A stretch of 37,585 bases of DNA, taken from the UHGV virus genome UHGV-0147806. One strand, written 5' to 3'. A program made the translations under genes and the position numbers. The notes beneath the pieces were generated by a model, which made no database searches, was not told the DNA's origin, and saw only the letters and a list, made by a program, of their open reading frames with translations. Shown here piece by piece: positions 10,699-37,001 of the stretch. The stretch comes from a virus. Every line of letters begins with the position of its first letter. Positions within the stretch are counted from its first letter, which is position 1.

Positions 10699-11529
10699 GT
10701 GCTGAACGAACTATGGGAACTGAAAAAAGCTGGTTTCGTTGATAAAAGCGCGTACACCTGGCGTGTGGCTGATAACAACGTTCAGCAGGAACAGCCAATG
10801 CAGGCAGAACTGCCGGAAGAAACCACCACGGCAACTGTAGTGAAAATCTCAGAGTGCGATTTAACCGCGACGATTGAACAACGCGGACCACAAACGGCGG
10901 ATGAACTGGCTACGCTGTTCGGTACAACATCCCGCAAAGTTGCTTCAACGCTGGCAATGGCAATCAGCAAAGGACGCCTGATTCGCGTAAACCAGAACGG
11001 TAAATTTCGTTACTGCATGCCGGGCGATAATTTACCAGCAGAGCCGAAAGCTGCATCGGTAGCGGAAACTGATGGTAAAGCCTTTCCTCAGCCAGCCGGT
11101 GTTGCGTTACCAGTACAGGAAGCGGCAACACAGGAAGAGCGTGAAAAAATTAAGGAGCAGGTTGTTGAGTTGGTACGCCAGAGTGGGCGCGAGACGTTAA
11201 GGCAACTGGAGGCCAAGACAGGTGCGACAAGATATCTGATGAGCATTCTTGCCAGAGAGTTGGTTGCCAGTGGCGATGTATACAACTCTGGCTATGGGTT
11301 ATTCCCGTCTGAACAGGCTCGTAAGGATTGGAAAAACGCCCGCAAAAAACTATCCAGGGCAAAGGTGAAAAAAACGGTTGTGGTTGATCCTGACCTTATC
11401 TGGTCATTACCAGACGGAGAAATACGCCGCTATGACAGGCGTCAGAACATAATCTGTCGCGAGTGCCGGAAGAGTGAAGTTATGAAACGTGTACTGGCAT
11501 TTTATCAAGGAAATCTTCGGTATTTATAG
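10699..11529 (+). CDS. YdaW-like protein, N-terminus probably disrupted (upstream fragment 10613..10663 in another frame)
   Basis: First ATG of the long frame is 10699, but the frame is open from 10630; a strong RBS (GGGAGGAAATTTTT-ATG at 10613) opens a 16-codon ORF in a different frame ending in TAG. Confidence 0.6.
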
Positions 11530-11826
11530 ACGTTACTAGATCAAAGAGCATTAGTTCATATGTAAATTGACATTTTTCTGGCACAGGGGAGAGCTAGCGT
11601 GGTTGTCCGCTTTGTGCCAGGAGCGGAAGTAGCAAACCAGATTTTACTGAAGCTTGAGCAGAGATACCACCAACTGATGCCTATCAGTAATGGGGCTCTT
11701 GATGATTCAAATAAAAAAGATTAAATTGATTAAGATTATTCTTACTTGATTAATTGTTTTGCGCATGGGCTTGGAAAACCATGAATCAGATCTTCACTAG
11801 ATAAAACAACGAACTATGGAGGAAGC

Positions 11827-12918
11827 GTGGGCGGCGAAACTAAGAATATTGATGAGATTGCAGGTATCATTTCCAGTAGAATTTTTGATGAGTTAGGCTG
11901 GAAAACCCAAAATACAACGGATATAAGTTGGGACTGTTGTTTGAGATCTCATCTAAACGCTAAACAACTTTTATCTGAAAACCCAAAAAAAACTCATCCT
12001 ACGGATGTAGTCTTCAAATATAAAGATCCTTATTCAGATATAACTCAGTATATACAAACAGATTTAAAATCTTATTGTGCCAGCACGCTTGACGGTACAA
12101 AATCAATATTGAACACTGTACGAAGTTTATCACAACAGGTAGCTTGCGCGCCAAGAAGTCCTGAGTGGCGGCGTTTATTTGTTGACAGCACAAATGAGAA
12201 ATATCAAGTTAACGGCCTACTTTTTATATATAATCATGACAATAAATATGACTCTGATTTAATTGAGAAATTAAATGGAGCAGCCACAGCAAGTTATGAT
12301 TTTCCAGAGAACTCTGTGATTGCCGTTTTTGACCCAACTATGATCAGATTTTTACTAGATGTTACAGAACACATCGAGACTAGAAGAGGAATTACTGACA
12401 AAGTAACACAAGAAACAAATATGTTATGGCAAAAAATTCCTGAGATAGAGAACTGTACATATTTTTACCCTGACAAACATAATAAAATAGCAACGAAAGG
12501 GAAAATCCTTCCAGCCACAATTGAAATGATAACATCTGGGATGATTTTTTACTCATATGAACACGAATATATTAGAAATGATGGTGGCGATAGAATAAGA
12601 AATAAAATATTGAATATATTCTGGAAGGAAGAGGTTGATTCCAGTAACCACTTTATATTTCTTTTAGAGTATATATTTAACTATCAATTACTCAATCAAT
12701 TTGACAAAATATTTGTTATAACTCCGTTCTCATCACACTCAAGCATTCATTTGCAATCCGCCATTAATGATTACATAGGAATATATTCTTTCACTCAATC
12801 TCATATAGAAACGTTAAAGGAAAAAATAGTATCCATTCCTTTTGTTAATCAAAAGCTATCTATATTTGAGTACCAGGTTGCCAGCAAGCAGGTGAATAGA
12901 AAATGTCACTTTTCATAA
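11827..12918 (+). CDS. Hypothetical protein A of AT-rich three-gene accessory operon (363 aa, GTG start)
   Basis: GTG at 11827 preceded by GGAGGA; AT-rich codon usage; no motif I can recognise with certainty. Confidence 0.7.
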   Translation: MGGETKNIDEIAGIISSRIFDELGWKTQNTTDISWDCCLRSHLNAKQLLSENPKKTHPTDVVFKYKDPYSDITQYIQTDLKSYCASTLDGTKSILNTVRSLSQQVACAPRSPEWRRLFVDSTNEKYQVNGLLFIYNHDNKYDSDLIEKLNGAATASYDFPENSVIAVFDPTMIRFLLDVTEHIETRRGITDKVTQETNMLWQKIPEIENCTYFYPDKHNKIATKGKILPATIEMITSGMIFYSYEHEYIRNDGGDRIRNKILNIFWKEEVDSSNHFIFLLEYIFNYQLLNQFDKIFVITPFSSHSSIHLQSAINDYIGIYSFTQSHIETLKEKIVSIPFVNQKLSIFEYQVASKQVNRKCHFS

Positions 12919-12928
12919 GGAGTATGAC

Positions 12929-14176
12929 ATGAATAAATATCAAGCTACGTTGTTTTCAAACGAAAGTGACATTTATACCGCCCTCCACTCTAACAGTGCA
13001 AAAATCACAGATGTTACATTAAGGAAAATCGCCTTCAATAGAGGGATAATTTTCCCATCTAACTTATCAAAAGAGGTATTGATAGAAAAATTATCAGACC
13101 TGCCATTTTCATATAATCACATCAGAGAAGTACAAGATAAACTGGCAACCAAACCCAGCCAAGACGTCTTCTCAGTAAAACGTATATATGAAGAATTTGA
13201 TATAGAGAAACTCTATGACGTTGTAAACAAAGTGAAAGAAAATAGACCCAAGTTGCTAGGGCATGAGAAAATTGATCATTACTCAGGCTTGCAAACCTAT
13301 CATATATCTATTGATTATACTGAGTTTGATTTTAGAAGGGGTAAGTTTCAGCAGAAAAAATTGTACAGTGGGAGTATAGTTTTTATAGTAAAAAAAGGAT
13401 ATGTTTCAGTAAGATATAACTATACGCCACGCATTTCAGAAATTCTCAAGCAAATAATTGATACATATTCATCAACAGTTTGTAACAACATAGTTGTCAA
13501 CGAAATAGATTTATCAAGTATCGTCGATACAGATCTTAGGAATATTTTTGCTGTTCATCTTTATGATTTTGATGGAAATTATAAAAAAACAGGACTTGAA
13601 TATGCTGGTCTTGAAAAGGTTAGAGTAAGCAGAATAAAAACATCTCTGGATATTAATGGAGATAATCTCGAAGGAAATAATAACGAAGAAACACAAGAGT
13701 TATTAAACAAGATTTCACCTTCTACAGATAACGAAAATGATGATGACATTAATAATCAGGAAATGGCATCTGACGATGATGAAAACCTAACTTTTAACAT
13801 TAACAATGCCGCGTATGATGGCCTATCATTAGTGAACGCACCTCAAATTAAGGAACTGTGCAGTGATGGGTTTTATCGAAGCTTAATTCGATGGAAGTCA
13901 TTTTCCTCAGTAGTTAAGAATCATACTATAACTTTTGAACTTAGTTTCGATGATAAATATCTTGGGAAAAATATAAAATTCAGAGCGTTATACAAAGAAA
14001 GCAACTCTGCATCCGCAGAGAGAGAAAAACTCAGTGACGCAGACTTTGATCAAGTCATGAAACAATTAGAAGATAAAATATTTTTGATTAATGACTTTAT
14101 TATCGAAGAGCATACCAAGCGATACCCAGTAACGAAAGCTATGTCTTGCGAGACTTTGAATCAGGAGGCTGGATGA
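12929..14176 (+). CDS. Hypothetical protein B of accessory operon (415 aa, acidic low-complexity linker)
   Basis: ATG after AAGGAG, 10 nt downstream of gene A; DNENDDDINNQEMASDDDEN linker. Confidence 0.7.
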   Translation: MNKYQATLFSNESDIYTALHSNSAKITDVTLRKIAFNRGIIFPSNLSKEVLIEKLSDLPFSYNHIREVQDKLATKPSQDVFSVKRIYEEFDIEKLYDVVNKVKENRPKLLGHEKIDHYSGLQTYHISIDYTEFDFRRGKFQQKKLYSGSIVFIVKKGYVSVRYNYTPRISEILKQIIDTYSSTVCNNIVVNEIDLSSIVDTDLRNIFAVHLYDFDGNYKKTGLEYAGLEKVRVSRIKTSLDINGDNLEGNNNEETQELLNKISPSTDNENDDDINNQEMASDDDENLTFNINNAAYDGLSLVNAPQIKELCSDGFYRSLIRWKSFSSVVKNHTITFELSFDDKYLGKNIKFRALYKESNSASAEREKLSDADFDQVMKQLEDKIFLINDFIIEEHTKRYPVTKAMSCETLNQEAG

Positions 14177-14829
14177 TGATAAAGGTAAAAATTTATAAAG
14201 CAGAAAAGGATATAACTAAAAGTGAGTTATTACATAAAGTAAATGACAACCTCTATGATGAAGATAAAGGATATGGTTTTCAAATCATTAATAACTCTGA
14301 AGTGCTTAAACTAAGATTTACCATGAGAAGCATTAGCAAGCAAAGCTTAGAATATGCTAATGGCGAGCGTTCAGAGGTTGAAATAGCAACTTACTTAAAT
14401 GTGGACTTTGGCGTCAGACAAGGGAAAAAAATCATACTATATGCCACTAATCCTCCATTAAGTATGAAAGTGCCTTATACTATGGTGCAAAAACTATTTG
14501 GTGAAGATAGTGGCTTGAGACCAGTAGAATTTGATCTGAGAAAAATTGTAAATGGTCTTTCTGAGGGCTTTGACATCAAGATAAAATCCATGTCTCTATC
14601 TAATATCTCTGTTGATCCTTTTACTTTAGCAAAGACAAAAATAGTAAGCTCAAAGAATCTCCAAGAAATTTATCAGAATAAATACATGAATAGTTCGGCC
14701 GTTTTTGATTCCGTACATTTCTTCGTTAACGGAATTGAAACGGAATTATCTAGGACGGGTAGATTCCGTGTGAGAGAGAGTCAGCTTCCAACACTTTTAT
14801 CCATCTTAGAAACTCTCAGAATTTTGTGA
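14173..14829 (+). CDS. Hypothetical protein C of accessory operon (about 218 aa)
   Basis: ATGATG start overlapping the gene B stop (ATGA), preceded by AGGAGG; strong intrinsic terminator follows. Confidence 0.65.
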   Translation: MMIKVKIYKAEKDITKSELLHKVNDNLYDEDKGYGFQIINNSEVLKLRFTMRSISKQSLEYANGERSEVEIATYLNVDFGVRQGKKIILYATNPPLSMKVPYTMVQKLFGEDSGLRPVEFDLRKIVNGLSEGFDIKIKSMSLSNISVDPFTLAKTKIVSSKNLQEIYQNKYMNSSAVFDSVHFFVNGIETELSRTGRFRVRESQLPTLLSILETLRIL

Positions 14830-14856
14830 AATATATAAGGAACTCAGGCCTACTTC

Positions 14857-14884
14857 GTCAGTAGGCCCCTTTTCCGGTTTGTAC
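14857..14884 (+). terminator. Rho-independent terminator of the three-gene operon
   Basis: GGCCTACT-tcgtc-AGTAGGCC stem-loop followed by CCTTTT. Confidence 0.75.
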
Positions 14885-15375
14885 TTATCTAGTCATCGAT
14901 TTGATCGTAATGATTCACACAGGATGCTGTTAGCAATGTCCGCTCTTCGCTCAAAGCGGACTAAAATGTTGGCTTGTTTCTGACTTAGAGCATTTAAGGA
15001 AGTGCTGGTGGTGACTGGTTGTTGTGTTCCATTTCTACAGAATAAAATCACAGAAACTATACCCAATAGTTGTATTGAATCACTGACGAGACAGCCTCAT
15101 ATTTATCAGGACTGGTGTGCGTCTAATACAGGGGGTTGTCGTGCTGGTTCTCAAATGTGCGCTGGCTATTGCGGCTGTAATGGCAATTTATTGTCTTGCT
15201 GTTGTTCTTATGGAGCGGCTTTCTGATTGATTACATACTGGCTAGAAAAAAGGTGTTACCTTGGTTTATCTTTGTCCGGCAAGGTGCGCTCATTAATCTT
15301 AAGTAAATTTATTGCTCAAGTATTCAGATTACTTCTTATGGTTGAAGTCTCCTGTCAATGTAGAACCAATATATT

Positions 15376-15415
15376 TACAAAAATGAGACCCGTCGGGGAT
15401 AGCCCTGCCGGGTCT
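15376..15415 (-). terminator. Rho-independent terminator of the DUF1971 gene (minus strand)
   Basis: AGACCCG ... CGGGTCT stem with an inner GGG/CCC pairing, followed on the minus strand by CATTTTTG. Confidence 0.6.
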
Positions 15416-15444
15416 GACTGTTAAAGCATTTTTAATATGATCAT

Positions 15445-15783
15445 CTATTTTTTGGTGCTATAGACTTTTTCGCCCGAAAAGTCTGGAGCGACCCAAAAGT
15501 TAATATTAAACTGAGCATCATCGCTTAGTTCAACACGGTGCCAGTATTGTGGTGGGCTTGTTGCAAAAGCGCCAGCATTAATGACTACTTTTATCTCCGG
15601 TTCAGTAGCATTCTCATCAGTAAAACCATAATATGTTACAGTGCCTTCCATTACGCACAACTGCCCAAAAACACCTGCTGCTGTATTATGATGTGTTAAT
15701 AACGCTGAAGGTACGTTCTCTTTTGTGAAGAACGGAGTTGAGCGTTTGATTACCCAATCTTTAGGAATTCTCTTGTGTGTCAT
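15445..15783 (-). CDS. DUF1971-family (YeaR-like cupin) protein, 112 aa
   Basis: ATG at 15783 preceded by GGAGGAGGTGG; the translation resembles E. coli YeaR as I recall it. Confidence 0.7.
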   Translation of the reverse strand: MTHKRIPKDWVIKRSTPFFTKENVPSALLTHHNTAAGVFGQLCVMEGTVTYYGFTDENATEPEIKVVINAGAFATSPPQYWHRVELSDDAQFNINFWVAPDFSGEKVYSTKK

Positions 15784-16596
15784 AACCACCTCCTCCAAAA
15801 CATGCATTAAAAATGCATCTTTTGGAGGGTTATGTCAAGCTGTTATGAAACACATAATTGATATGTTGATTAGAGGAGAAGATAGAATAAATATGGTTGT
15901 TTTTCGTATAACTATTTGTTTTACTTTTAGTTTATGCATTCTGTGTGTTAGGAATAAGTTATTAAAGTTTAATCAAAAAATCTCGATGTAGTCCACATAG
16001 ATTACTGTTACTGAACCTTATTGTGTGTATTAGTTGTGTTCTGAAATTTCAGCTTAATTATTTATGATGTATTTTTTAACGATAAATATTTTCCCAGGAT
16101 ACCTTTACTGTGTATATAAATAAATTATATACGCATAAATAATGTAAAGGCGTCCTTTTAGATATATCTTATCAAATGTTAATGACTTGAGTGGGAAATA
16201 TGATTCCAGCAACTTATCATGTGGCTACTTTATAAAAATAATGCCCATATAAAACAACAAGCGAAAAGGATTACGGATAAAAAAGGAGCGAGATGTGCGA
16301 ACTTGTTATTTTCCATGTTTAACCACCTTAAATAATTGATGATGACGGGATGATTGCATCTGTAATGCTTTTATTGAAATGTTATGATAAAAAAGAACTT
16401 TTGCATAACATTAAAATGTAATTTATCTAATCGTTTTTAATAATAAGTGTCGTATTTCTATCCTTGTACCAGCTATTTGATATGTAGTGTTTGTTCATGC
16501 TATGTGGGGCTTTACACCATAGCCAGTTTATTTATACTTTATTCGTCAGCCTGAACAACTGGCATCTGCTGCGCTGCGCCATCGAGAGATTGAGAA

Positions 16597-17196
16597 ATGG
16601 CGCATATACAACTGGTCAAACAAACCTCTTCTGGTTTACTTCTCCCGGCGACGCCGGAGAGTTGCGATTTTCTGCATCAAATCAAAATAGGTGAGTGGAT
16701 ACACGCAGACTTTAAGCGTGTGCGTAACTACGCATTCCACAAGCGTTTTTTCAAACTCCTGCAACTGGGATTCGATTACTGGACTCCGGTCGGTGGGGCG
16801 ATCACGCCTCGCGAACGAGAACTGCTGTCTGGTTTCGTTGATTACCTGTGCGAATCAGTTGGTCGGGAACACACGCCAGCCCTGAGTGATGCCGCAGAGC
16901 AATACCTTAACACCGTTGCGACTCGTAGAACCCGGGATACGGCGTTGCTAAAGTCGTTTGAGGCTTTCCGCGAGTGGGTAACCATTCAGGCCGGATTTTA
17001 CACCGAGCATATTTATCCGGACGGTAGCCGTGGGCGTCGGGCAAAATCCATCGCTTTTGCGAATATGGACGAAGTCGAGTTTCAGCAGGTTTATAAATCT
17101 GTACTGAATGTGCTGTGGAACTGGATTCTGTTCCGTAAATTCTCCTCTCAGGAGGAAGTTGAAAATGTGGCCGCACAACTACTGGAGTTTGCGTAA
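16597..17196 (+). CDS. Phage nin-region protein of unknown function (199 aa)
   Basis: ORF immediately upstream of ybcO-like and Q-like genes; stop/start overlap with the next gene. Confidence 0.6.
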   Translation: MAHIQLVKQTSSGLLLPATPESCDFLHQIKIGEWIHADFKRVRNYAFHKRFFKLLQLGFDYWTPVGGAITPRERELLSGFVDYLCESVGREHTPALSDAAEQYLNTVATRRTRDTALLKSFEAFREWVTIQAGFYTEHIYPDGSRGRRAKSIAFANMDEVEFQQVYKSVLNVLWNWILFRKFSSQEEVENVAAQLLEFA

Positions 17197-17486
17197 TGGT
17201 GAATTTACGTAAAGCGGCTAAAGGCCAGATGTGCCAGATCAGAATCCCTGGCTACTGCAATCACAATCCCGAAACCTCTGTGCTGGCGCATTACAGGCTG
17301 GCGGGGACGTGCGGAACAGCGACAAAACCACATGATATGCAGGCGGCGATAGCCTGTAGCTCATGCCACGATCTAATCGACGGGCGGGTAAAAACCAGCG
17401 ATTACACCAAAGAAGAATTGCGCCTGATGCATGCTGAAGGGGTTTTTCGCACACAAGAAATCTGGAGAAAGAAAGGTCATTTATGA
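17196..17486 (+). CDS. YbcO-like nin-region protein (DUF1364-type, Cys/His-rich, 96 aa)
   Basis: 96-aa product with CQIRIPGYC ... CSSCHD pattern; position between a nin ORF and Q. Confidence 0.6.
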   Translation: MVNLRKAAKGQMCQIRIPGYCNHNPETSVLAHYRLAGTCGTATKPHDMQAAIACSSCHDLIDGRVKTSDYTKEELRLMHAEGVFRTQEIWRKKGHL

Positions 17487-18025
17487 TTTACCCAACGAAT
17501 ACAGGAAAAAGCGGAGAACACCTTCGCCTCACCACGCTGGAAAGTGTCTGGATTCAGGGAAAACTACGTATGTGGGGGCGCTGGTCGTATATTGGCGGTG
17601 GCAGGTCAGGGAATATGTTCAATCAGTTGTTGGCATCCAAAAAACTGACGAAAACAGCCATTAATGAAGCCCTGCGCAGAATGAAAAAAGCGGGAATAGA
17701 GAAAGCTGAGCTGGAAGCGTTTTTGCGAGAGATGATCAACGGCAAGCAAAAGAGCTGGCTGGCGCATTGTACTGATGCAGAGGCGTTATGTATTGATCGA
17801 GTCATAAGTGAGGTGCTGGCAGAGCATCCAGGATTGATTTGCATTCTCCGGCAACGCTATGAAGGGCGGGGGATGACTAAGCGCAAAATGGCTGAATTGC
17901 TAAATGATGCACACCCAGAGTGGTGTTTTAGCACATGCGAAAAACGGATTGCTAATTGGTTAGCTGTTGCTGAGTATGCCCTATATATTCCCATGCGTGA
18001 ATCATTTGCTGAGAAAATGGCTTGA
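17483..18025 (+). CDS. Late-gene antiterminator Q-like protein (180 aa)
   Basis: ATGA overlap with the upstream gene; followed about 80 nt later by a strong intrinsic terminator and then the lysis cassette. Confidence 0.55.
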   Translation: MIYPTNTGKSGEHLRLTTLESVWIQGKLRMWGRWSYIGGGRSGNMFNQLLASKKLTKTAINEALRRMKKAGIEKAELEAFLREMINGKQKSWLAHCTDAEALCIDRVISEVLAEHPGLICILRQRYEGRGMTKRKMAELLNDAHPEWCFSTCEKRIANWLAVAEYALYIPMRESFAEKMA

Positions 18026-18104
18026 TTTCTTACGTATAAACTGCTTCAATTTTGCTATGCTTCGCAAAGCTGTATCGCGAGGCGGATTGCAGACATGGAC
18101 ATCG

Positions 18105-18132
18105 TAAAAAAACCGCTTAATGCGGTTTTTTT
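18105..18132 (+). terminator. tR'-like intrinsic terminator downstream of Q
   Basis: A7-AACCGC-ttaat-GCGGTT-T7; symmetric A/T tracts. Confidence 0.8.
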
Positions 18133-18452
18133 ACGTCAGGAAAGCAGGGGAGAATGCTGCTAGTTGGGCAACTGGTCTTTCTGCTCCAAATTATAACAGA
18201 GACCAGTTATAGTTTCGGTGCTGTGTTTTTTTTACAATATTGTGATAACACATTGCTGGCGGGAGTTTTGATATTTCTTGGCAGGGGCTGATGATGCGTT
18301 ATCCTGATGTCGTCAACTCATATAAAATGAGATGAGAGATCATTGCAGGGTGGTTTGTAATTCGCTGTTTAGCGGGACAATATGTTGTCTGATACAAGAC
18401 ACCCGACGCCTCAGATTACTATAATAAAGACGAAGCATCCTTTGTATTGACC

Positions 18453-18478
18453 AACCGCCTGTTTAGGCGGTTCTTTTT
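18453..18478 (+). terminator. Second intrinsic terminator in the Q-to-lysis spacer
   Basis: AACCGCC-tgttta-GGCGGTT followed by CTTTTT. Confidence 0.6.
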
Positions 18479-19069
18479 GGGCTGGTTTATTGTATGCCAA
18501 ATGATTATTAAAAAGGTTGTGTTAATAACAAAATCCGAAATAATATGCCTGCATATTTTTATCTTGCTTATATTCTGCATATTGTGCATAGCAGGCTCAT
18601 CCCTGCAATCAAAACTGTATGATGAGTATTTTTTGTTTTCCTTTTTTCCAGTCATCTGATGATGACCTGCTTCTTTTTAATCCGGATCGACATCAGTTTT
18701 TTAAGATAATTCCTGCGAGTTATATGCATAAATGCCACAAACTCCGCATTTTATGTGGTTGGGAGTTGCCGGGCGCGCAGTGAGTTTGCTAAGAAAACTC
18801 CTGCATGGTGAATCCCCCTGTGCGGTGGGGTGATACCATTAACCTTTTCTGTCGCCGACAGGTATCACGAACATTTTGTTCACCGGGAGGCACCCGGCAC
18901 CATGCACTTCAATAGATTCTCTCCACATTATGGATATTCTTTCAGAATATCCCACGCAGACTTTGTGTAAATGTTAACAAATGTGCGTTTTATTTGATCT
19001 GATTCGCTGTTTGAGCGTCCAAAACAACGGTATATATAATCCTTTACTATATGACATATGTGAGGAAAA

Positions 19070-19498
19070 ATGGGTTTTCGTAGCGCATCAATTCTTACGT
19101 TGATTATTAGTGGGATTATTATCGGGTGCACTGATGCTGTATCGACAAATTATCATGACCGTACATCATATTACTCCGATAAAGCAATAGAGACACAGTA
19201 TGTGAGTTCATCTGAACGTACTTCTGATGTTAGTGAGGATATCCGTCTGTATGCCCATCAAATCAAGAGCGCCATCGAAAAACAGTTCGGGGATGCGAGT
19301 AAGTATTCAGGAAAAGAGTGTACACTGAGAATGCATATGGCCCCGAATGGCCTTCTACTGGAGGTTAAAAGAGAAAGTGGAGACCTCGATTTATGTCGTG
19401 AAGCGATGAATGCGATAAAGAATGCTGATATACCTGCCCCCCCTTCGCCGGAAGTATATAAAGTATTTCAAAATGGGGTGCTGGATTTTAAACCCTGA
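19070..19498 (+). CDS. Lipoprotein with TolA domain III-like C-terminus (142 aa)
   Basis: Lipobox IIIGC; C-terminal region closely resembles the E. coli TolA C-terminus as I recall it; GAGGA RBS. Confidence 0.75.
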   Translation: MGFRSASILTLIISGIIIGCTDAVSTNYHDRTSYYSDKAIETQYVSSSERTSDVSEDIRLYAHQIKSAIEKQFGDASKYSGKECTLRMHMAPNGLLLEVKRESGDLDLCREAMNAIKNADIPAPPSPEVYKVFQNGVLDFKP

Positions 19499-19648
19499 TA
19501 TTTATTGTTTTGTAATAAACGGTTTCGGCTTAGGTTTGTTCTGACACAGCTACGGCACTGAGCTAAATTTAGCGGATAGTCAGCTCTGAGCCAGTGGCGG
19601 ACGTAACAACTACTATTGCTGAGATTTTAATGGATTGAGGAGCAAGAA

Positions 19649-20044
19649 GTGGGATTAAAGAAAATCGTTATGTTGACTTTTTGGGTCGGTTTTGTTGCGG
19701 GATGCACACCTTTACACCCTTCAGATTGCCACAAAACTACTGCTACAGGTAGTTGCAGTTCAGGACGCTGGGATGATCAGGATGAATGGGGGGCGCAAGC
19801 GCGGGGAATCAGAGCTGCAATTAATGCCAAACTTGATGAGCCGCATAACTGGAAAGGGAAAAAATGCAGGTTGCATATGGAATTCTCTCAGGATGGCACG
19901 GCGTTAAAAATATCTACCAGTAACGGTGATAAAGCCTATTGCGAAGCGATAAAGTCCGCAGCTCATAAAGCCAAATTTCCGGCCTTCAACAATCCGGAAG
20001 TCTACAGAGATTTTCAGAAATCTGGCTTTGACATGCGAGGTTAG
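19649..20044 (+). CDS. Second, more divergent TolA domain III-like lipoprotein (131 aa, GTG start)
   Basis: GTG after GAGGAG; signal peptide with lipobox VAGC; C-terminal region KKCRLHMEFSQDG ... PEVYRDFQKSGFDMRG parallels the first lipoprotein. Confidence 0.65.
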   Translation: MGLKKIVMLTFWVGFVAGCTPLHPSDCHKTTATGSCSSGRWDDQDEWGAQARGIRAAINAKLDEPHNWKGKKCRLHMEFSQDGTALKISTSNGDKAYCEAIKSAAHKAKFPAFNNPEVYRDFQKSGFDMRG

Positions 20045-20169
20045 CTCTTCAATTACTATATCTCATTCATAGCAAACTGACAGATTTGATGATGTTCTAT
20101 ATACGAAACCTGTGATGTCAAGTCTGAGCTAATACAAATAAACATAATATCAGAGAAATACATTTTATT

Positions 20170-20192
20170 AGCTCGCTACGGCGAGCTTTTTA
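20170..20192 (+). terminator. Intrinsic terminator after the lipoprotein genes
   Basis: AGCTCGC-tacg-GCGAGCT followed by TTTTT. Confidence 0.7.
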
Positions 20193-20295
20193 TATTGCAT
20201 CGTCTCCAGCATATATATCAATTAAGGCTCTGATTGATGTGTCTGAAAGCCTACACATAATAACTATGCCATCCGTTCCGTGCGGAGGTGAGGCT

Positions 20296-20511
20296 ATGAA
20301 ATCCATGGACAAAATTTCAACAGGCATTGCCTACGGCACCTCCGCAGGCAGTGCTGGCTACTGGTTTTTACAGTTGCTCGATAGAGTAACTCCGTCACAG
20401 TGGGCTGCAATCGGTGTGCTGGGTAGTCTGGTATTTGGCCTGCTGACGTACCTGACAAACCTTTATTTCAAGATTAAAGAAGATAAGCGCAAGGCTGCGA
20501 GAGGTGAATAA
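20296..20511 (+). CDS. Class II holin (phage 21 S / EssD-like pinholin, 71 aa) with dual-start motif MKSM
   Basis: GGAGGTGAGG RBS; two in-frame ATGs at 20296 and 20305; one transmembrane-rich small protein directly upstream of the endolysin. Confidence 0.85.
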
Positions 20512-21008
20512 TGCCTCCATCATTACGAAAAGCCGTTGCTGCTGCTATTGGTGGCGGAGCAATTGCTATAGCATCAGTGTTAATCACTGGCCCAAGTGGT
20601 AACGATGGTCTGGAAGGTGTCAGCTACATACCATACAAAGATATTGTTGGTGTATGGACTGTATGTCACGGGCATACAGGAAAAGACATCATGCTCGGTA
20701 AAACGTATACCAAAGCAGAATGCAAAACACTCTTGAATAAAGACCTTGCCACTGTCGCCAGACAAATTAACCCGTACATCAAAGTCGATATACCGGAAAC
20801 AACGCGCGGCGCTCTTTACTCATTCGTTTACAACGTGGGTGCTGGCAATTTCAGAACATCGACGCTTCTTCGCAAAATAAACCAGGGCGATATCAAAGGC
20901 GCATGTGATCAGCTACGTCGCTGGACATATGCTGGCGGTAAGCAATGGAAAGGTCTCATGACTCGTCGTGAGATTGAGCGTGAAATCTGTTTGTGGGGTC
21001 AGCAATGA
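20511..21008 (+). CDS. SAR endolysin (phage 21 R-like lysozyme, 165 aa)
   Basis: N-terminal Gly/Ala-rich signal-arrest-release segment ([18 protein letters not shown]); start overlaps the holin stop. Confidence 0.85.
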
Positions 21009-21469
21009 ACAGAGTAACCGCGATTATCTCCGCTCTGGTTATCTGCATCATCGTCTGCCTGTCATGGGCTGTTAATCATTACCGTGATAACGCCATTACC
21101 TACAAAGCCCAGCGCGACAAAAATGCCAGAGAACTGAAGCTGGCGAACGCGGCAATTACTGACATGCAGATGCGTCAGCGTGATGTTGCTGCGCTCGATG
21201 CAAAATACACGAAGGAGTTAGCTGATGCTAAAGCTGAAAATGATGCTCTGCGTGATGATGTTGCCGCTGGTCGTCGTCGGTTGCACATCAAAGCAGTCTG
21301 TCAGTCAGTGCGTGAAGCCACCACCGCCTCCGGCGTGGATAATGCAGCCTCCCCCCGACTGGCAGACACCGCTGAACGGGATTATTTCACCCTCCGGGAA
21401 CGACTGGTAATGATGCAGGCCCAACTTGAAGGTGCTCAGCAATACATAACCGAGCAGTGTTTAAAGTAA
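21005..21469 (+). CDS. Rz i-spanin
   Basis: ATGA overlap with the endolysin; N-terminal transmembrane segment then coiled coil; contains an embedded lipoprotein ORF in another frame. Confidence 0.85.
21225..21410 (+). CDS. Rz1 o-spanin lipoprotein embedded within Rz in another frame
   Basis: 61-aa ORF with lipobox VVGC and proline-rich mature part, wholly inside Rz. Confidence 0.8.
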
Positions 21470-21606
21470 AATCTTAACTACAATATGATTCATTTTGATG
21501 ATTGTTTCATAAGGAACAGTGAAGTAAGATCTAAGAGGAGTTAAATTTTATACAGTATAATCATAATATTGCAGCAAGGTGGTTATAATTGAAAGAATAT
21601 TTAGAT

Positions 21607-23201: not shown

Positions 23202-23990
23202 ATGAGCGAGAAATTAAAGATAGTCTATCGCCCATTACAAGAATTGTCACCGTATGCGCACAACGCCAGGACGCACAGTACTGAGCAGGTGGCACAACTG
23301 GTAGAAAGTATTAAGCAATTCGGCTGGACTAATCCGGTGCTGATTGACGAAAAGGGCGAAATTATTGCGGGTCACGGTCGTGTTATGGCGGCTGAAATGC
23401 TCAAAATGGATTCTGTTCCGGTCATTGTTCTGTCTGGCCTGACGGATGAGCAGAAAAAGGCGTACCGCCTGGCAGATAATCGCCTGCCGATGAATGCTGG
23501 CTGGGATGAAGATCTGTTGCGGATGGAGCTGTCGGACCTAATCAATGCTGATTTTGATGTCTCCCTGACAGGCTTCATCCCGGCAGAAATTGATGAACTG
23601 TTGACGGATGTTTTGCCCGGTACAGGAAATGAGGAGGAGCCGTATACGACGAAAATTGATACGCCTGTTTATGAGCCGTCAGGCGGTAAACCGGATATCA
23701 GTGAACTGTACGACGATACGAAAACTCAGGAGCTGATCAGCCGGATACGTTCGGCGTCCCTTGATCCTGATATTGAGAAATTCCTCCTGTGTGCAGCAGA
23801 ACGTCACACGGTGTTTAATTTCAGCAGAATTGCGGACTATTACGCTCATGCCCCCGCTGAAATTCAGTGCCTTTTCGAGGAGTCGGCGCTGGTGATCATT
23901 GATTATCAGCAGGCTATTGAAAATGGATTTGTCCGAATGACGCAGCGCATGGTGGAGATCATGCATGGCGGGGAGGAGGAATATGCGTGA
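23202..23990 (+). CDS. ParB-like nuclease domain protein (262 aa)
   Basis: ParB N-terminal-type motif region (VLIDEKGEIIAGHGR); located upstream of the terminase genes. Confidence 0.7.
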   Translation: MSEKLKIVYRPLQELSPYAHNARTHSTEQVAQLVESIKQFGWTNPVLIDEKGEIIAGHGRVMAAEMLKMDSVPVIVLSGLTDEQKKAYRLADNRLPMNAGWDEDLLRMELSDLINADFDVSLTGFIPAEIDELLTDVLPGTGNEEEPYTTKIDTPVYEPSGGKPDISELYDDTKTQELISRIRSASLDPDIEKFLLCAAERHTVFNFSRIADYYAHAPAEIQCLFEESALVIIDYQQAIENGFVRMTQRMVEIMHGGEEEYA

Positions 23991-24915
23991 TGATTTTTGC
24001 GCCTTTATTCTGACTCACGGGCGACCGGACAAAGTTCTGACTTACCGGACGTTGCGTCGTGCTGGCTATACCGGGAAAATTTTTATCGTTGTTGATGATG
24101 AAGATAAGACACGGCATCAGTACATGGCTGAATTTGGTGAACAGGTGCTGGTATTTTCCAAAGCCGATATTGCTAGTCGTTTTGACGAAGCCGATAATTT
24201 TAGTGACCGCCGCTCAATTTTTTACGCCCGTAATGCCTGTTTCGACCAGGCAAAACTGGTCGGGTGTAAATACTTCATTCAGCTCGATGATGATTATCAC
24301 GAGTTCCAGTTTCGGGTGGATCGCAACTATGACCAGGCCTATTTCCCGATAAGGAAACTGGATGAGATCCTTTCTGAAATGCTTGCGTACTACGAATCAA
24401 TACCTGCTCTTTCCATCGCTATGTCGCAGGGCGGGGATTTTCTTGGTGACAATGGCGGCCATGCTTCGTGGGTGAAACGCAAGGCAATGAACAGCTTTAT
24501 CTGTTCGGTTGATCGACCGTTCTCATTCATGGGGCGCATTAACGAGGATGTGAATACGTACACGAATCTCGGTCGCTGTGGTGAATTGTTTATGACGATC
24601 GGTGCTGTCCAGTTAGGGCAGAAACAGACGCAGAAAAACAGCGGCGGAATGACCGAGCTGTATCTGGATTCCGGAACCTACGTTAAAAGTTTTTACTCCG
24701 TCATGTATGCGCCGTCGTGCGTAAAAATCTCACTTATGGGTGCCAGTCATAAACGCATTCACCATCAGGTCACCTGGAACAACGCTGCAGTAAAAATCCT
24801 TCACGAAAAATACAGGAAGAAGACACCCTGCATATCAATGGGGGTGACAAATGATTCCGTATTCGAAAGTCGAGTCTCTGGCAGCGTGCCGGATGACTGC
24901 ACAACAAATCGCTGA
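23983..24915 (+). CDS. Hypothetical protein, possible GT-A-fold glycosyltransferase-like (about 310 aa)
   Basis: ATG after GGAGGAGGA, overlapping the ParB-like stop; IVVDDEDK and QLDDDY (DxD-like) motifs; function inferred only. Confidence 0.4.
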   Translation: MRDDFCAFILTHGRPDKVLTYRTLRRAGYTGKIFIVVDDEDKTRHQYMAEFGEQVLVFSKADIASRFDEADNFSDRRSIFYARNACFDQAKLVGCKYFIQLDDDYHEFQFRVDRNYDQAYFPIRKLDEILSEMLAYYESIPALSIAMSQGGDFLGDNGGHASWVKRKAMNSFICSVDRPFSFMGRINEDVNTYTNLGRCGELFMTIGAVQLGQKQTQKNSGGMTELYLDSGTYVKSFYSVMYAPSCVKISLMGASHKRIHHQVTWNNAAVKILHEKYRKKTPCISMGVTNDSVFESRVSGSVPDDCTTNR

Positions 24916-25105: not shown

Positions 25106-26200
25106 ATGAGCAGACCGGACTGGGGGGCGTTGCAGCAGGAGTATATTGCTGAATACACCCGCTCCGGTATATCTCCGGTGGCATGGTGTGAAGCAAGGGG
25201 ACTGAATTACGCAACAGCCCGTCGTTACATCAAAAAAACTCCGAAAAATGCGCAGACAGAAATGTGCAAAACTGCGCAAAAAAGTGCGCAGAAAAAATCT
25301 GCGCAGACTGCACAAAAGCGGAACGAAAAATCTCAGGAAAAAAAGCCAGTATTCGATGCGGGCCTGAATGAGGGCGACGCGGAGGAATTTTCGTTCTGTC
25401 CCGATGAATTCGGCATTTCTGACCAGCAGGCTAAGTTTGCGATGCTTGTTGCTCAGGGTAAAAAGCCGACAGAGGCGTACCGACTAGCCGGTTATGAGGG
25501 GCAAGGTGCGACAGCTAACAGCAACGCCAGTCGTATGCTTAGAAATGCCAGGGTTTTTCGCGCTATCAGCTACTTCCGCAATCAGTACCAGAAACGCTAT
25601 ACCGCAGACCTGGATTTACTAGTGAGTCAGTTGATGGCTATTGTCCTGGCCGACCCCAATCAGCTTGCACAATTTCGCCGTGTTAACTGCCGTTATTGCT
25701 GGGGCGAGAATCATCTCTACCAGTGGCGCGATATAGCAGAATTCGACAAGGCAGCGGCGCAGGCTTCCAGAGATGGCAAACCCGAACCGGAATATGGAGG
25801 CCTCGGCTTTGTTGATAACGCCATACCCAATCCGGACTGCCCGAAGTGCTGCGGTGAGGAAACGGGACAGCTTTATATGGCTGATACCACTCTGCTTGAT
25901 GGGGATGCGCGGCAATTATATGCAGGGGCAAAATTCGGAAAATTCGGCGTTGAGATCCTGCTGGAGGATAAGGCTGCCGCCCGGCGTGAATTGTTGCGTT
26001 TGTTTTCTGCTGGCGGGGCTTTATGTGCAGATAAGCGGCTACAGGAACTGGAAATTGAACGGCGCAGAATGGAAAACCAGAAGCTGCGCAAAGAGATCGA
26101 AACGGTGGAAGATAATGAATATCCCCAGCCTGTGGCGATCAATATTAATGTGGTTGATGCCAGAGTAAGGAGTGATGAAGATGATCTCTCCGACGCTTAA
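25106..26200 (+). CDS. Putative terminase small subunit (364 aa; Terminase_2-like central region plus Cys-rich segment)
   Basis: Region FGISDQQAKFAMLVAQGKKPTEAYRLAGYEG ... fits the small-terminase pattern; immediately upstream of and overlapping the large terminase. Confidence 0.5.
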   Translation: MSRPDWGALQQEYIAEYTRSGISPVAWCEARGLNYATARRYIKKTPKNAQTEMCKTAQKSAQKKSAQTAQKRNEKSQEKKPVFDAGLNEGDAEEFSFCPDEFGISDQQAKFAMLVAQGKKPTEAYRLAGYEGQGATANSNASRMLRNARVFRAISYFRNQYQKRYTADLDLLVSQLMAIVLADPNQLAQFRRVNCRYCWGENHLYQWRDIAEFDKAAAQASRDGKPEPEYGGLGFVDNAIPNPDCPKCCGEETGQLYMADTTLLDGDARQLYAGAKFGKFGVEILLEDKAAARRELLRLFSAGGALCADKRLQELEIERRRMENQKLRKEIETVEDNEYPQPVAININVVDARVRSDEDDLSDA

Positions 26201-27197
26201 TGTGCCTCAGGCGCGATTTCTTTCAATGCCCCATAAATTTAAAGCCTATATTGCTGGTTTTGGCTCGGGCAAAACATGGGTTGGGTGTGGCGGCATATGC
26301 AAGGGGATTTGGGAGCATCCAGGTATAAATCAGGGATATTTTGCGCCAACGTATCCCCAAATTCGCGATATTTTTTACCCTACAGTGGAAGAAGTTGCTG
26401 CTGACTGGGGATTGAACGTAAAAATTAATGAGGGAAATAAAGAGGTTCACTTTTATTACGGACGCCAGTATCGGGGAACCACTATCTGCAGATCGATGGA
26501 GAAGCCACAAACGATCGTCGGTTTCAAAATTGGTAATGCGTTGGTGGATGAACTGGACATTTTGCCGAAGGAAAAAGCCAGAACGGCGTGGCGCAAGATA
26601 ATTGCACGTATGCGTTATAAGATTGATGGACTTCGCAACGGTATTGACGTTACAACCACGCCGGAAGGATTCAAATTTGTCTACGAGCAGTTTGTTAAAG
26701 CCGTGCGTGAAAAAACAGAGCTGGCCTCACTGTATGGTCTGGTGCAGGCATCTACTTTCGATAATGAAAAGAACCTGCCAGCAGATTACATTCCTTCGCT
26801 TCTTGAATCATACCCTCCAGAGCTGATTAAAGCCTATCTTCGAGGACAGTTTACTAACCTGACAAGTGGTACTGTTTACCATCAGTTTGACCGGAAACTG
26901 AATAATTGCGAAGAAGTGGAGCAGCCAGGGGAGCCGATTTATATTGGGATGGATTTTAACGTTGGAAAGATGGCGGGAATCGTCCATGTGCTGCGTTTGG
27001 GGCTTCCATGTGCGGTAACTGAAATCATCAATGCCTACGATACGCCGGATATGATCCGCATCATTAAAGAACGCTTCTGGCTGTATGATGGGAATGATTA
27101 CCGGAAAGTGAGGGAAATTTATATTTATCCAGATGCTTCCGGGGATTCCAGAAAATCAAGTAACGCAAGTACGACGGATATAGCCCAGCTTAAGTAG
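26172..27197 (+). CDS. Terminase large subunit, N-terminal 341 codons ending at an in-frame amber TAG
   Basis: Walker A-like AGFGSGKT; ORF ends at TAG 27195-27197 although the same frame continues for 95 more sense codons. Confidence 0.8.
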   Translation: MMKMISPTLNVPQARFLSMPHKFKAYIAGFGSGKTWVGCGGICKGIWEHPGINQGYFAPTYPQIRDIFYPTVEEVAADWGLNVKINEGNKEVHFYYGRQYRGTTICRSMEKPQTIVGFKIGNALVDELDILPKEKARTAWRKIIARMRYKIDGLRNGIDVTTTPEGFKFVYEQFVKAVREKTELASLYGLVQASTFDNEKNLPADYIPSLLESYPPELIKAYLRGQFTNLTSGTVYHQFDRKLNNCEEVEQPGEPIYIGMDFNVGKMAGIVHVLRLGLPCAVTEIINAYDTPDMIRIIKERFWLYDGNDYRKVREIYIYPDASGDSRKSSNASTTDIAQLK

Positions 27198-27482
27198 GCT
27201 GGTTTTAACGTTGTGGTGAACAGCTCGAACCCGCCAGTAAAAGATCGCGTTAACTCAATGAATGCAATGTTCTGCAATGCCAATGGTGAGCGTCGCTATA
27301 AAGTTAATGTGAAGCGTTGCCCGTTATATGCCGAATCTCTGGAGCAACAGGTCTGGGATGAGAAGGGGGAGCCTGATAAAAAATCTGGCAATGATCACCC
27401 GAATGATGCCGGAGGTTATTTCATCGTTAAGCAATTCCCTATTGTCAAACCGACCGGAAGAGTCACATCACTTCGGATTTAA
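27198..27482 (+). pseudogene. Terminase large subunit C-terminal continuation, downstream of the in-frame TAG
   Basis: Same frame as 26172..27197; combined length about 437 codons, typical for a large terminase. Confidence 0.6.
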
Positions 27483-27484
27483 TT

Positions 27485-28891
27485 ATGGCTGATATATCAA
27501 CACCCAACCTCGACTATAACGATATGCTGGAGGCGTGGGATATTAACGACGCACTGATGGGCGGTACGCTTGAAATGCGCAGGCAGGGGGAAAATTATCT
27601 CCCAAAATGGCCTAACGAAGATGAAGACGCTTATAAAAAACGCCTGTCTGTGGCTACGCTACTTCCTGTGTATGAAGAAAGCATCAAGCAAAATATTGGG
27701 CGCATATTTGCAGAGCCGACAGTATTGAGTGAGGAAACGCCGGCAAAAATCAGGGAATATGCAGAAAATATCGACATGGAGGGGAGCCGACTGGATGTGT
27801 GGGCACAGCAATTTTTCAGCCTCGCATTTCAGTATGGTGTGGCACATGCGCTGGTGGACTATCCACGAACGGATATGAAAGAGATTCGGACAAAAGCCGA
27901 TGAAAACGCGACCGGTGGTCGTCCGTACGTTACGATGCTGAATCCACGCCAGGTTATTGGATGGAAATCGAAAGTTGAAAAAGGGAAAGTTGTTCTCACT
28001 GATTTGCGTATAAAAGAGGTCATCATTATTGATGGTGATGATTTCGGGCAGAAGAAGGTGGAGCAGATCCGCCATATTATGCCCCGTCGAGTTGAAATTT
28101 ATCGACGTAGCGAAGGCACTAATGGCGAATCTGTCTGGACGCTTCATGAGTCATGGAATACCAGCCGTGATGATATTCCTCTGGTAACACTGTACACGAA
28201 GAAAACAGGATTTATGCGTGGTACACCGCCATTGCTTAATCTTGGCTTGCTGAATATCAAGCACTGGCAAAGCCAGAGCGAGCAGGACAATATTCTTCAT
28301 GTTGCCCGCGTTCCATTGCTGGTGGCCTACGGGCTGGACAGGAATGAAGAACTGACGGTTGGTGCATCCACCGCTACGATTTTTGAGGACAGAACAAAAA
28401 ATGGCCTCGAATATGTTGAACATAGTGGCGCAGCGATAGAATCTGGCGAAACATCACTTGAGAAGCTGGAAAATCAGATGCGTCATGCCGGCGCTAAACT
28501 TCTGCGTGCTGAAAATACATCCACCAAATCTGTTGATCAGACTAATGAAGAGCGAATGCAGGAAAACTCGCCGCTTTATACAATGGCGAACTCCCTCGAA
28601 GATGCCCTCGATAATATTCTCCAGATAATGGCGGAATGGATCGGAGAGAGTTGCGGTGGCAATGTGGATGTGCGCACTGAACTGGATGTATCTGCCCAGG
28701 TGTTTGACTCATCCTCCGCGCTGGCTGTTCAGTCATTGCGTCAGGGCGGTGATATACGTCAGATTGATGCGGTTCGGGTGTTGCAGGCGTTGAAATTTAT
28801 CGATCAGGATTCCCGTCCAGAGGAAGTGATCGATGAATTAAAAAATCAGAGTGTAATGCTGATGGAAATCAATGATGCAAACCGTGAATGA
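27485..28891 (+). CDS. Portal protein (468 aa)
   Basis: Size and position immediately after the terminase. Confidence 0.7.
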   Translation: MADISTPNLDYNDMLEAWDINDALMGGTLEMRRQGENYLPKWPNEDEDAYKKRLSVATLLPVYEESIKQNIGRIFAEPTVLSEETPAKIREYAENIDMEGSRLDVWAQQFFSLAFQYGVAHALVDYPRTDMKEIRTKADENATGGRPYVTMLNPRQVIGWKSKVEKGKVVLTDLRIKEVIIIDGDDFGQKKVEQIRHIMPRRVEIYRRSEGTNGESVWTLHESWNTSRDDIPLVTLYTKKTGFMRGTPPLLNLGLLNIKHWQSQSEQDNILHVARVPLLVAYGLDRNEELTVGASTATIFEDRTKNGLEYVEHSGAAIESGETSLEKLENQMRHAGAKLLRAENTSTKSVDQTNEERMQENSPLYTMANSLEDALDNILQIMAEWIGESCGGNVDVRTELDVSAQVFDSSSALAVQSLRQGGDIRQIDAVRVLQALKFIDQDSRPEEVIDELKNQSVMLMEINDANRE

Positions 28892-30954: not shown

Positions 30955-31527
30955 ATGGCTGGAAATACCCTGACCGGGTTGATCCCGACTATTTATACCG
31001 CCCTGGATGTTGTATCCCGTGAGCAGGTAGGTTTTATCCCTGCGGTAGCAAAAAACGCAAAAGCTGACGCCGCAGCAAAAGATCAGACGGTAACCGCGCC
31101 AGTTGCGCCTGAGGCGAAAACCGAAGATATCGTACCGGGGCCGTCAGCTCCGAATACCGGTGATCAAAATATTGGCACTGTTGATGTAAAAATTACTAAA
31201 TCCAAAATGGCACCGGTTAAATGGAATGGTGAAGAACAACTGGCTCTTGGCCCTTCAGGGACTTACAACACCATTCTGGCTGATCAGTTCAAGCAGGCTT
31301 TTCGCGCCCTTGCAAACGAGGTTGAGGCTGATCTTGGTGCGTTGTATTTCGGTGCTTCCCGCGCCGTGGGAACCGCAGGGACAACGCCGTTTGGTGTTAA
31401 AGATGATCTTTCTGATGCTGCTCTGGCTCGTCAGGTTACCGCAGCAGATGAAGCACCTACGATAACCAGAAAAAAAAATTCCCCGGCTGCCGTGATCGCA
31501 AAAGCCAGTGCTGAGGCGATTAGTTGA
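30955..31527 (+). CDS. Capsid-like protein, short (190 aa); possibly a 3'-truncated major capsid gene
   Basis: ATG after AAGGAATATTTAATT; occupies the position expected for the major capsid gene but is too short for one. Confidence 0.35.
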   Translation: MAGNTLTGLIPTIYTALDVVSREQVGFIPAVAKNAKADAAAKDQTVTAPVAPEAKTEDIVPGPSAPNTGDQNIGTVDVKITKSKMAPVKWNGEEQLALGPSGTYNTILADQFKQAFRALANEVEADLGALYFGASRAVGTAGTTPFGVKDDLSDAALARQVTAADEAPTITRKKNSPAAVIAKASAEAIS

Positions 31528-35744: not shown

Positions 35745-36075
35745 TACGGAAGAATTTCACTGGTTACCAGAGGATGGAATGAAAACAGAAAATAAACCAT
35801 CGATAAAAACTGTAAGATTTGGTGATGGTTATGAGCAACGAAGTCCAAATGGACTTAATCATTCTCTGCGCGTTTTCACCTGTGATTTCAAAGTTGAGGC
35901 GAATGAACGTGATTCATTTGAAAAATTTTTAGCCCGGCATGAAGGCTATAAATCTTTTTTTTGGCGCCCGCCGGGTATTAACAGAAAAATCAGAGTGGTG
36001 TGTCGAACGTGGTCAGCGACAGAACATATCACCTATACCGATTTTTCGTGTCAGTTTGACGAAGTGGTGATCTGA
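35737..36075 (+). CDS. Minor tail protein M (lambda M-like, 112 aa)
   Basis: Overlaps the tape measure stop; [12 protein letters not shown] motif resembles lambda M as I recall it. Confidence 0.8.
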
Positions 36076-37001
36076 TGCAGGACATACAACAGGAAACGCT
36101 GAATGAATGCATTCGTGCGGAGCAGTCGGCCAGCGTGGTGCTCTGGGAAATCGACCTGACCGAGGTAGGCGGGGATCGCTACTTTTTCTGCAATGAGCAG
36201 AACGAGAAAGGAGAGTCTGTCACCTGGCAGAGTCGGCAGTATCAGGCCTATCCCATTCAGGGGAGTGGATTTGAGATGAACGGCAAAGGTGCCAGTGCAA
36301 GGCCAACGCTGAAAGTCTCTAATCTGCACGGCATGGTCACCGGGATGGCGGAAGACCTGCAGAGTCTGGTCGGCGGAACGGTGGTCAGGCGTAAGGTTTA
36401 CGCCCGTTTTCTGGATGCGGTGAACTTCGTCAACGGAAACAGTGACGCCGATCCGGAGCAGGAGGTGATCAGCCGCTGGCGTATTGAGCAGTGCAGCGAA
36501 CTGAGCGCGGTCAGTGCCTCCTTTGTACTGTCCACGCCGACGGAAACGGACGGCGCTGTTTTTCCGGGGCGCATCATGCTTGCTAATACCTGCACCTGGA
36601 CCTATCGCGGTGATGAGTGCGGTTATCACGGTCCGGCGGTCGCGGATGAATATGACCAGCCAACGTCCGATACCCATAGTGTTAGCGGTACGGCTGCTTC
36701 AGCCGGTGCACATACCCATTCGATAACATTTGTTTCAGGTGGCACCAAAGGTGCTCCGGGAAGTGGATCACCTGATTATTCTAAATACAGTGTTAACACT
36801 TCTTCTGCAGGCGCTCATACGCACTCTGTATCGGGTACTGCTGCAAGCGCAGGTGCACACGCACATACTGTAGGTATTGGTGCGCATACGCACTCCGTTG
36901 CGATTGGTTCACATGGACACACCATCACCGTTAACGCAGCTGGTAACGCGGAAAACACCGTCAAAAACATCGCATTTAACTATATTGTGAGGCTTGCATA
37001 A
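36075..37001 (+). CDS. Chimeric ORF: lambda L-like minor tail protein (residues 1-199) fused to a side-tail-fibre C-terminus with His-x-His repeats
   Basis: N-terminal two thirds closely resemble lambda L as I recall it; after QPTSD the sequence switches to GAHTHS repeats ending [11 protein letters not shown]. Confidence 0.75.

Follow-up and report, generated by a model that had tools for sequence, protein, structure and literature searches.

Large terminases of the Terminase_6 type, such as T4 gp17, Sf6 gp2 and the enzyme of phage D6E, combine an N-terminal ASCE ATPase with a C-terminal RNase H-like nuclease, and the intact allele of the gene considered here is alike in both respects, with only 12–19% sequence identity to any solved terminase. 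The D6E enzyme's C-terminal arm regulates ATP binding, and docking of the terminase on the portal has been proposed as a further role for it (PMC5727402). Among lambdoid prophages of Escherichia coli, the Rac relatives Rac-SA53 (KU052037), vB_EcoS-666R9 (ON470614) and SPF_0923 (ON032529), the last two being predicted prophages, share with the present prophage the gene run intR-xisR-ralR-recT-recE-racC-kilR-sieB, as well as the ydaU/V/W-type replication genes and the group trkG-ynaK(ParB)-ydaY. Missing structural genes make the Rac prophage of E. coli K-12 defective, as they do the prophage described here; in K-12 a larger deletion has taken out the entire terminase-to-tail block.

In the prophage analyzed here, the large terminase (TerL) gene is interrupted by an amber codon. 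With a probability of roughly 0.9, this is ordinary pseudogenisation in a clonal cryptic prophage and not a conditional or regulated feature. Both the type of element and the type of event are textbook cases, and the two gene fragments are already in public databases as separate proteins.

The Rac-type prophage and its surroundings

The window, that is the whole stretch of 37,585 nucleotides (UHGV virus genome UHGV-0147806), is a Rac-type lambdoid prophage with intR, recT, recE, a cI/cro-like region, ydaU/V/W-type replication genes, Q and lysis genes. Its gene content also includes trkG, a ParB-like ynaK, the small terminase gene (TerS), TerL, the portal gene, a Mu-F gene, ydaY, the tape measure gene and tail genes. 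The Rac gene set (intR, recET, kilR, sieB, trkG, ynaK, ydaY) is present, and the whole is similar to Rac-SA53. The right flank of the contigs carrying the prophage reads sitDCBA-uspF-ompN-ydbK. In strain NCTC9066, whose Rac prophage matches window 10916–21500 with 100% identity, intR adjoins ttcA. The prophage of the window occupies the ttcA / sitABCD-uspF-ompN locus in a single clonal group of E. coli. The vB_EcoS-* records were considered as possible induced phages; going by the title of their source paper, which speaks of phages located in the genomes of clinical isolates, they are predicted prophages, and to that extent they are no proof that an intact relative is inducible. A literature search combining Rac, terminase and pseudogene found nothing specific.

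Several other gene groups of the window deserve mention. On the plus strand, three consecutive ORFs (363, 415 and 227 aa; 11827–14829) have no Pfam match and resemble PADLOC PDLC03004/5/6 'Hp1/Hp2/Hp3' (E 5e-41, 1e-10 and 4e-11), forming a candidate three-gene anti-phage defence cassette in a variable prophage slot; the segment 11518–15444 is missing from ON470614 and is found with 100% identity in NCTC9066 and other strains. A 120-aa ORF with a DUF1971 domain (15445–15807, minus strand) falls within the moron region, with the defence-like cassette on one side and the DUF1367/Q genes on the other. Two adjacent plus-strand ORFs of 142 and 131 aa (19070–19498 and 19649–20044), each with a TolA C-terminal domain, are flanked by the Q antiterminator region and the holin gene; in NCTC9066, RefSeq lists one of the two as a tolA fragment. 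Directly 5' of the small terminase gene, on the plus strand at 23202–24915, a ynaK-like protein of 262 aa with a ParB_N domain overlaps a 316-aa TET-associated glycosyltransferase (PF20691 TAGT, E 4e-34). This pair is conserved in the intact relatives and may constitute a DNA-modification module.

The amber codon in the large terminase gene

TerL (26181–27485) lies between the TerS and portal genes, all three on the plus strand. TerS (25106–26200, 364 aa, Pfam Terminase_2) is intact and its 3' end overlaps the TerL start; the portal gene (DUF4055, 27485–28891, 468 aa) is likewise intact, and both products have the same length as in relatives. As the earlier note had read from the letters of the window, the ORF with the Walker A motif AGFGSGKT stops at TAG 27195–27197, while its frame continues through 95 sense codons (27198–27482). 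TAA at 27483–27485 then closes it. The ORF may start at GTG 26172 or ATG 26181, the latter matching the start annotated in RefSeq relatives. Counted from ATG 26181, the complete gene specifies 433 aa (434 codons with the stop); the figure of about 437 codons given in that note was slightly too high, its description being otherwise accurate.

A megablast search with window 26172–27485 against a phage collection and complete E. coli genomes returned 10 phage-collection records and 787 complete genomes, mostly at 99.8–99.9% identity. In the matching records, a single gene annotated as terminase large subunit stands between the small terminase gene and the DUF4055 portal gene. Base-by-base comparison with two relatives revealed one mismatch in 1314 bp, a C->T transition at 27195, which replaces CAG (Gln339) by TAG. 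Because the relatives differ from the window at this one base only, the two ORFs are one gene. Deamination at a Dcm site was considered as the mutational cause and rejected, since the C at 27195 stands in GCAGG and not in CCWGG, and hence in no Dcm hotspot.

The 5' fragment of the pseudogene (26181–27197; Pfam Terminase_6N at residues 24–238, E 1.9e-33) encodes 338 aa identical to residues 1–338 of the intact 433-aa protein, comprising the whole ATPase domain and the first half of the nuclease domain. The 3' fragment (27198–27485; 95 codons plus TAA; Terminase_6C positions 81–154 of 155, E 7.9e-8), on the plus strand like the 5' fragment and the amber codon, encodes the remaining half of the RNase H-like nuclease domain together with the C-terminal arm. 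In the intact protein, Terminase_6N (PF03237, ATPase) covers residues 24–238 and Terminase_6C (PF17289, RNase H-like nuclease) residues 255–417; the latter is broken near profile position 80 of 155. Since the 338-aa product keeps only the Terminase_6N family and the 94–95-aa continuation matches Terminase_6C 81–154, the stop lies in the middle of the nuclease domain. A GTG at 27213 does sit in the TerL frame 3' of the amber codon, as had been pointed out, and the 12 nt 5' of it (GGTTTTAACGTT) contain no Shine-Dalgarno motif. For this reason, and because a single compact fold is split by the break, it seems unlikely from the sequence that the 3' piece is translated on its own.

A search at E <= 1e-5 yielded 7869 homologues. 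Lengths were read from the best 120 of these 7869, which are mostly 433–437 aa long with both Pfam domains present. In 20 close homologues (78–89% identity) from Klebsiella, Serratia, Providencia, Dickeya, Kosakonia, Sodalis and Mixta, column 339 holds Q, E or D, and the 95 residues 3' of the break are densely invariant. A HMMER scan of 1.84 billion cluster representatives gave 3781 TerL relatives, whose full-length members form one continuous alignment over query positions ~5–425. The motifs of the intact protein are Walker A at G26–T32, D123–E124, and nuclease residues D258, D318 and D405/D409. Across 72 relatives of 35–70% identity, G26, K31, D123 and E124 of the ATPase domain are invariant, and all four are present in the 338-aa product of the window. 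Likewise D258, D318, N350, R356 and Y413 do not vary, and D405 and D409 hardly do; of these, N350, R356, D405, D409 and Y413 all lie 3' of the break, in the 3' fragment. The earlier note had allowed for homologues that end naturally at this point, with a separate gene downstream. None does: the 20 close and 72 distant homologues are single proteins of 400–470 aa that align through position 339, and a naturally split, two-gene terminase is ruled out by all homologues being single genes of this size (~400–470 aa). The window allele ends at residue 338, so that no single polypeptide holds the full nuclease domain. Because that domain is incomplete and D405 and D409 are missing, the window holds a Terminase_6-type pseudogene and no functional member of the family.

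The fold of the intact protein was compared with solved structures. Neither phmmer with intact TerL nor a profile of the close homologues found a match in the PDB; a profile of the distant homologues aligned from end to end with 5oe8, the large terminase from Geobacillus phage D6E (E 2e-15, hmmsearch), pairing GMDFN with CDYG, YPDASG with IVDPSA and DHxxDAxGY with NDHQLDADRY. An AlphaFold (AF2) model of the reconstructed intact protein, built on the distant-homologue alignment, reached a pLDDT of 94.3. The best fold matches of this model in Foldseek were the terminases of D6E (5oe8, E 8.7e-23), Sf6 (4iee, E 6e-14) and T4 (3ezk, E 8e-13), with the HK97 large terminase also among the best in the PDB. 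Only for the intact protein, as reconstructed, does this match over both domains hold. In the model, residue 339 is the end of helix 333–339, and everything after it is lost from the truncated product: a strand, helices 353–364 and 381–389, a hairpin, helix 405–418 with D405 and D409, and the tail 419–433. The amber codon thereby costs the product 95 strongly conserved residues, among them the DHxxD helix and the C-terminal arm. Judging by domain architecture and conservation, we infer that the 338-aa product would be able neither to cut concatemers nor to assemble a working motor.

An in-frame TAG in a late structural gene, in place of Gln, might also be taken as a sense codon, by recoding or programmed readthrough in the late genes; Gln is the amino acid usually assigned in TAG-recoded phages. 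Recoded phages have many in-frame TAG codons without TAG terminators and encode a suppressor tRNA. The window has a single in-frame TAG, and TAG terminates at least five other genes in it: ydaY (32037), which adjoins the structural genes, the ORFs ending at 20044 and 11529, the integrase gene and the minus-strand ORF 15445–15807. ARAGORN found no tRNA gene in the 37.6-kb window, and thus no suppressor tRNA is encoded there. Moreover, the host E. coli reads the standard code, and CAG stands at the site in hundreds of near-identical prophages. Recoding does not occur here on this evidence and is virtually inconceivable as an explanation of the amber codon.

Spread and inheritance of the TAG allele

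At least 107 contigs in NCBI, ENA and Logan contain the exact 338-aa protein; it is indexed in 210 blocks, and the contigs derive from independent isolate and gut-metagenome assemblies. TAG was present in the contexts examined from four of four NCBI isolate assemblies (a 5.15-Mb scaffold of GCA_000351025.1, GCA_013051205.1, GCA_045885195.1 and GCA_008041775.1) and six of six ENA assemblies, several of them labelled as metagenomes. It is also carried by the IMG/VR record UViG_2563366883_000017. Of 34 loci fetched, 29 have TAG, the remaining five being CAG relatives, loci in which the gene is absent or loci that are too short; the 29 come from at least 20 assemblies, made with varied assemblers and in varied studies. 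Carriers differ from the window by 0–14 SNPs per 21 kb. They are one young clonal prophage lineage that has been sequenced many times independently. The allele was found in none of 750 complete RefSeq E. coli genomes having the segment (61-nt site-centred query, >=99% identity), and an exact-pattern scan did not find it among the GTDB representatives, one genome per species.

These data bear on a further possibility raised in the earlier note, namely that the amber codon is a sequencing or assembly error, with C as the true base at 27195 and the gene intact. The difference of a single base between window and relatives and the lack of TAG in complete RefSeq E. coli genomes would fit an error. 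Nevertheless, the same TAG in 29 loci of at least 20 assemblies by different assemblers and studies, and the identical truncated protein on so many independently assembled contigs, speak strongly against it, as does the sequence of the site, which lies outside any homopolymer. An error is therefore rejected as extremely unlikely. The TAG is a genuine C->T nonsense mutation in the large terminase gene, and it is inherited vertically.

In public records, the 338-aa product appears as 'terminase [Escherichia coli]' and the downstream piece as a 'hypothetical protein' of 74 or 89 aa. For annotation this means that the 338-aa 'terminase' and the 74–89-aa 'hypothetical protein' should be merged and flagged as one pseudogene. 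The TAG-bearing prophage could also serve as a lineage marker.

Other lesions and the decay of the prophage

The amber codon does not stand alone. Comparison of the window with the more complete relatives ON470614 and ON032529 by blastn defined two deletions, D1 and D2. D1 removed 3325 bp (3.3 kb), with a 2-bp TT microhomology at the junction 31436/31437. The remnant of the coat gene (P22-type major capsid; 30955–31527, plus strand) reads into this junction, and the two junction halves fall in genes annotated as 'P22 major capsid protein' and 'phage tail tube protein' in complete genomes. Lost are approximately the C-terminal half of the 402-aa coat gene, five following small genes, assigned by position to the head-tail group, and the greater part of the BIG2 tail tube gene. 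D2 removed ~8.4 kb comprising the C-terminus of L, the genes K, I, J and lom, and most of stf. Its junction, near 36672, lies within an in-frame fusion ORF, L::Stf (36075–37001, plus strand; Phage_tail_L 1–174 of 206 plus a Phage_fiber repeat), in which residues 1–~199 of minor tail protein L run on into the GAHTHS repeats found at the C-terminus of the side tail fibre.

Contigs sampled through the truncated TerL, the coat remnant or L::Stf have every lesion whose site they cover. The D1 junction is found in 0 of 761 complete E. coli genomes, and no intermediate, either TAG without the deletions or the deletions with CAG, was detected in complete E. coli genomes, IMG/VR or JGI metagenomes, the IMG/VR search returning only the same TAG-carrying UViG. 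The amber mutation may have come first, freeing the structural genes from selection, or it may have been a later neutral hit. In most carriers TerS, the portal gene, the Mu-F gene, the tape measure gene and the TerL 3' fragment are still open. In a lineage this young (<=14 SNPs per 21 kb), these open neighbours say little either way.

The deletions also bear on the suggestion that the codon requires an amber-suppressor host. Glutamine-inserting amber suppressors such as supE/glnV44 would reverse exactly a change of CAG to TAG, so that the prophage would make the exact wild-type protein and function in such a host alone. That TerS, the portal, Mu-F and the tape measure gene are intact fits this reading. 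However, the rest of the phage genome is not functional. About half of the coat gene is missing, as are K, I and J, the head-tail genes and the greater part of the tail tube gene; because of the losses in D1 and D2 particles would be impossible and neither packaging nor infectivity could be regained by restoring TerL. Furthermore, the window has no tRNA gene, and the carriers come from wild isolates and gut metagenomes rather than from laboratory phage stocks. A suppressor-dependent prophage is accordingly to be discounted, its probability being close to nil. A nonsense mutation that inactivates packaging had been among the alternatives listed at the outset. The nonsense change itself holds, being the sole one in 1314 bp, and so does inactivation where the enzyme is concerned; for packaging as a whole, the amber codon is only one of at least three disabling lesions.

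Further lesions were seen in sublineages and in other strains. Within the L::Stf ORF of TAG sublineages, insertion sequences (IS) have three apparent insertion sites, at window 36497, 36525 and 36599. A 402-aa gene of the Transposase_mut family is called at the L::Stf break in carrier loci L004 and L010, a 1.3-kb insert with an 8-bp overlap interrupts the ORF in L003 (11091–12405), and in L013 and L023 the match to the window ends at 36525; the breaks in L004, L010, L013 and L023 lie near locus positions 20300–20450. In carrier GCA_037049955.1 (locus L028 2798–3913), the Mu-F-like head morphogenesis gene is split into ORFs of 135 and 208 aa, a private lesion. The complete genome of E. coli NT1F31 (NZ_CP045190.1) has TerL interrupted by IS903B, an independent inactivation. 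In NCTC9066 (NZ_LR134000.1, locus L034 31287–35864), a larger deletion has left a truncated ynaK and a truncated TerS that abuts a tail-fibre fragment, with TerL absent; in this other lineage, the same type of prophage has decayed independently. Other E. coli lineages have different TerL truncation points.

It might be argued that the 338-aa ATPase protein, alone or with a re-initiated 89-aa C-terminal fragment, is kept to serve host or prophage. It might then act as a domesticated ATPase, interfere with superinfecting phages whose portals are related, or supply a trace of TerL by readthrough. The complete ATPase domain and the presence of the allele on more than 100 contigs would agree with retention, and basal UAG readthrough by tRNA-Gln exists in E. 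coli. Yet the GTG at 27213 lacks a Shine-Dalgarno sequence, the break splits a single compact RNase H fold midway, and in a young clonal lineage the frequency of the allele reflects clonal expansion rather than selection upon it. Genes nearby have been hit by IS elements and further truncations, and TerL is truncated elsewhere in other lineages. Retention is thus very unlikely. A more specific version, in which the truncated TerL would benefit the clone by acting as a poison of packaging motors in superinfecting phages whose portals or small terminases are related, or by mobilising DNA together with TerS, the TAG permitting traces of full-length protein by Gln readthrough, is most improbable. 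The same can be said of an ATPase-only fragment retained for function, which has no positive support.

Ordinary pseudogenisation remains the preferred reading. In a Rac-type lambdoid prophage, C->T at 27195 has turned the Gln339 codon CAG of TerL into TAG. Termination at codon 339 leaves a 338-aa product with its ATPase complete and its nuclease domain cut after helix 333–339, and such a truncated TerL would presumably be unable to cut or package DNA. D1 and D2 have independently stripped away the greater part of the capsid gene and of the tail tube gene, along with the head-tail and tail-tip genes. The amber codon thus marks one step as a cryptic prophage, which probably no longer makes particles, decays by ordinary mutation. 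Ordinary prophage decay is indicated because the deletions removed capsid and tail genes as well, and the TerL gene is probably no longer under selection. The prophage should consequently score as defective, despite its apparently complete length of 37.6 kb and its terminase, portal and tape-measure genes. It offers a clean, datable case of stepwise decay of a Rac-type prophage in one E. coli clone, through a nonsense mutation, two deletions and then IS hits, and has no bearing on open questions of packaging or translation.

Compared with known systems, the present allele differs from T4 gp17, Sf6 gp2 and the D6E terminase in ending at codon 339, with nuclease fold and C-terminal arm incomplete. 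The laboratory amber (sus) packaging mutants lambda Aam and P22 2-am are alike in having a single CAG to TAG change in the large terminase gene, suppressible in principle by Gln insertion. Unlike them, the present allele arose naturally in a chromosomal prophage and is inherited clonally in wild E. coli, and the accompanying deletions make suppression irrelevant. In contrast to the Rac prophages of K-12 and NCTC9066, the window prophage keeps TerS, the portal gene, Mu-F and the tape measure gene, and its private lesions are TAG339 in TerL, D1 and D2.
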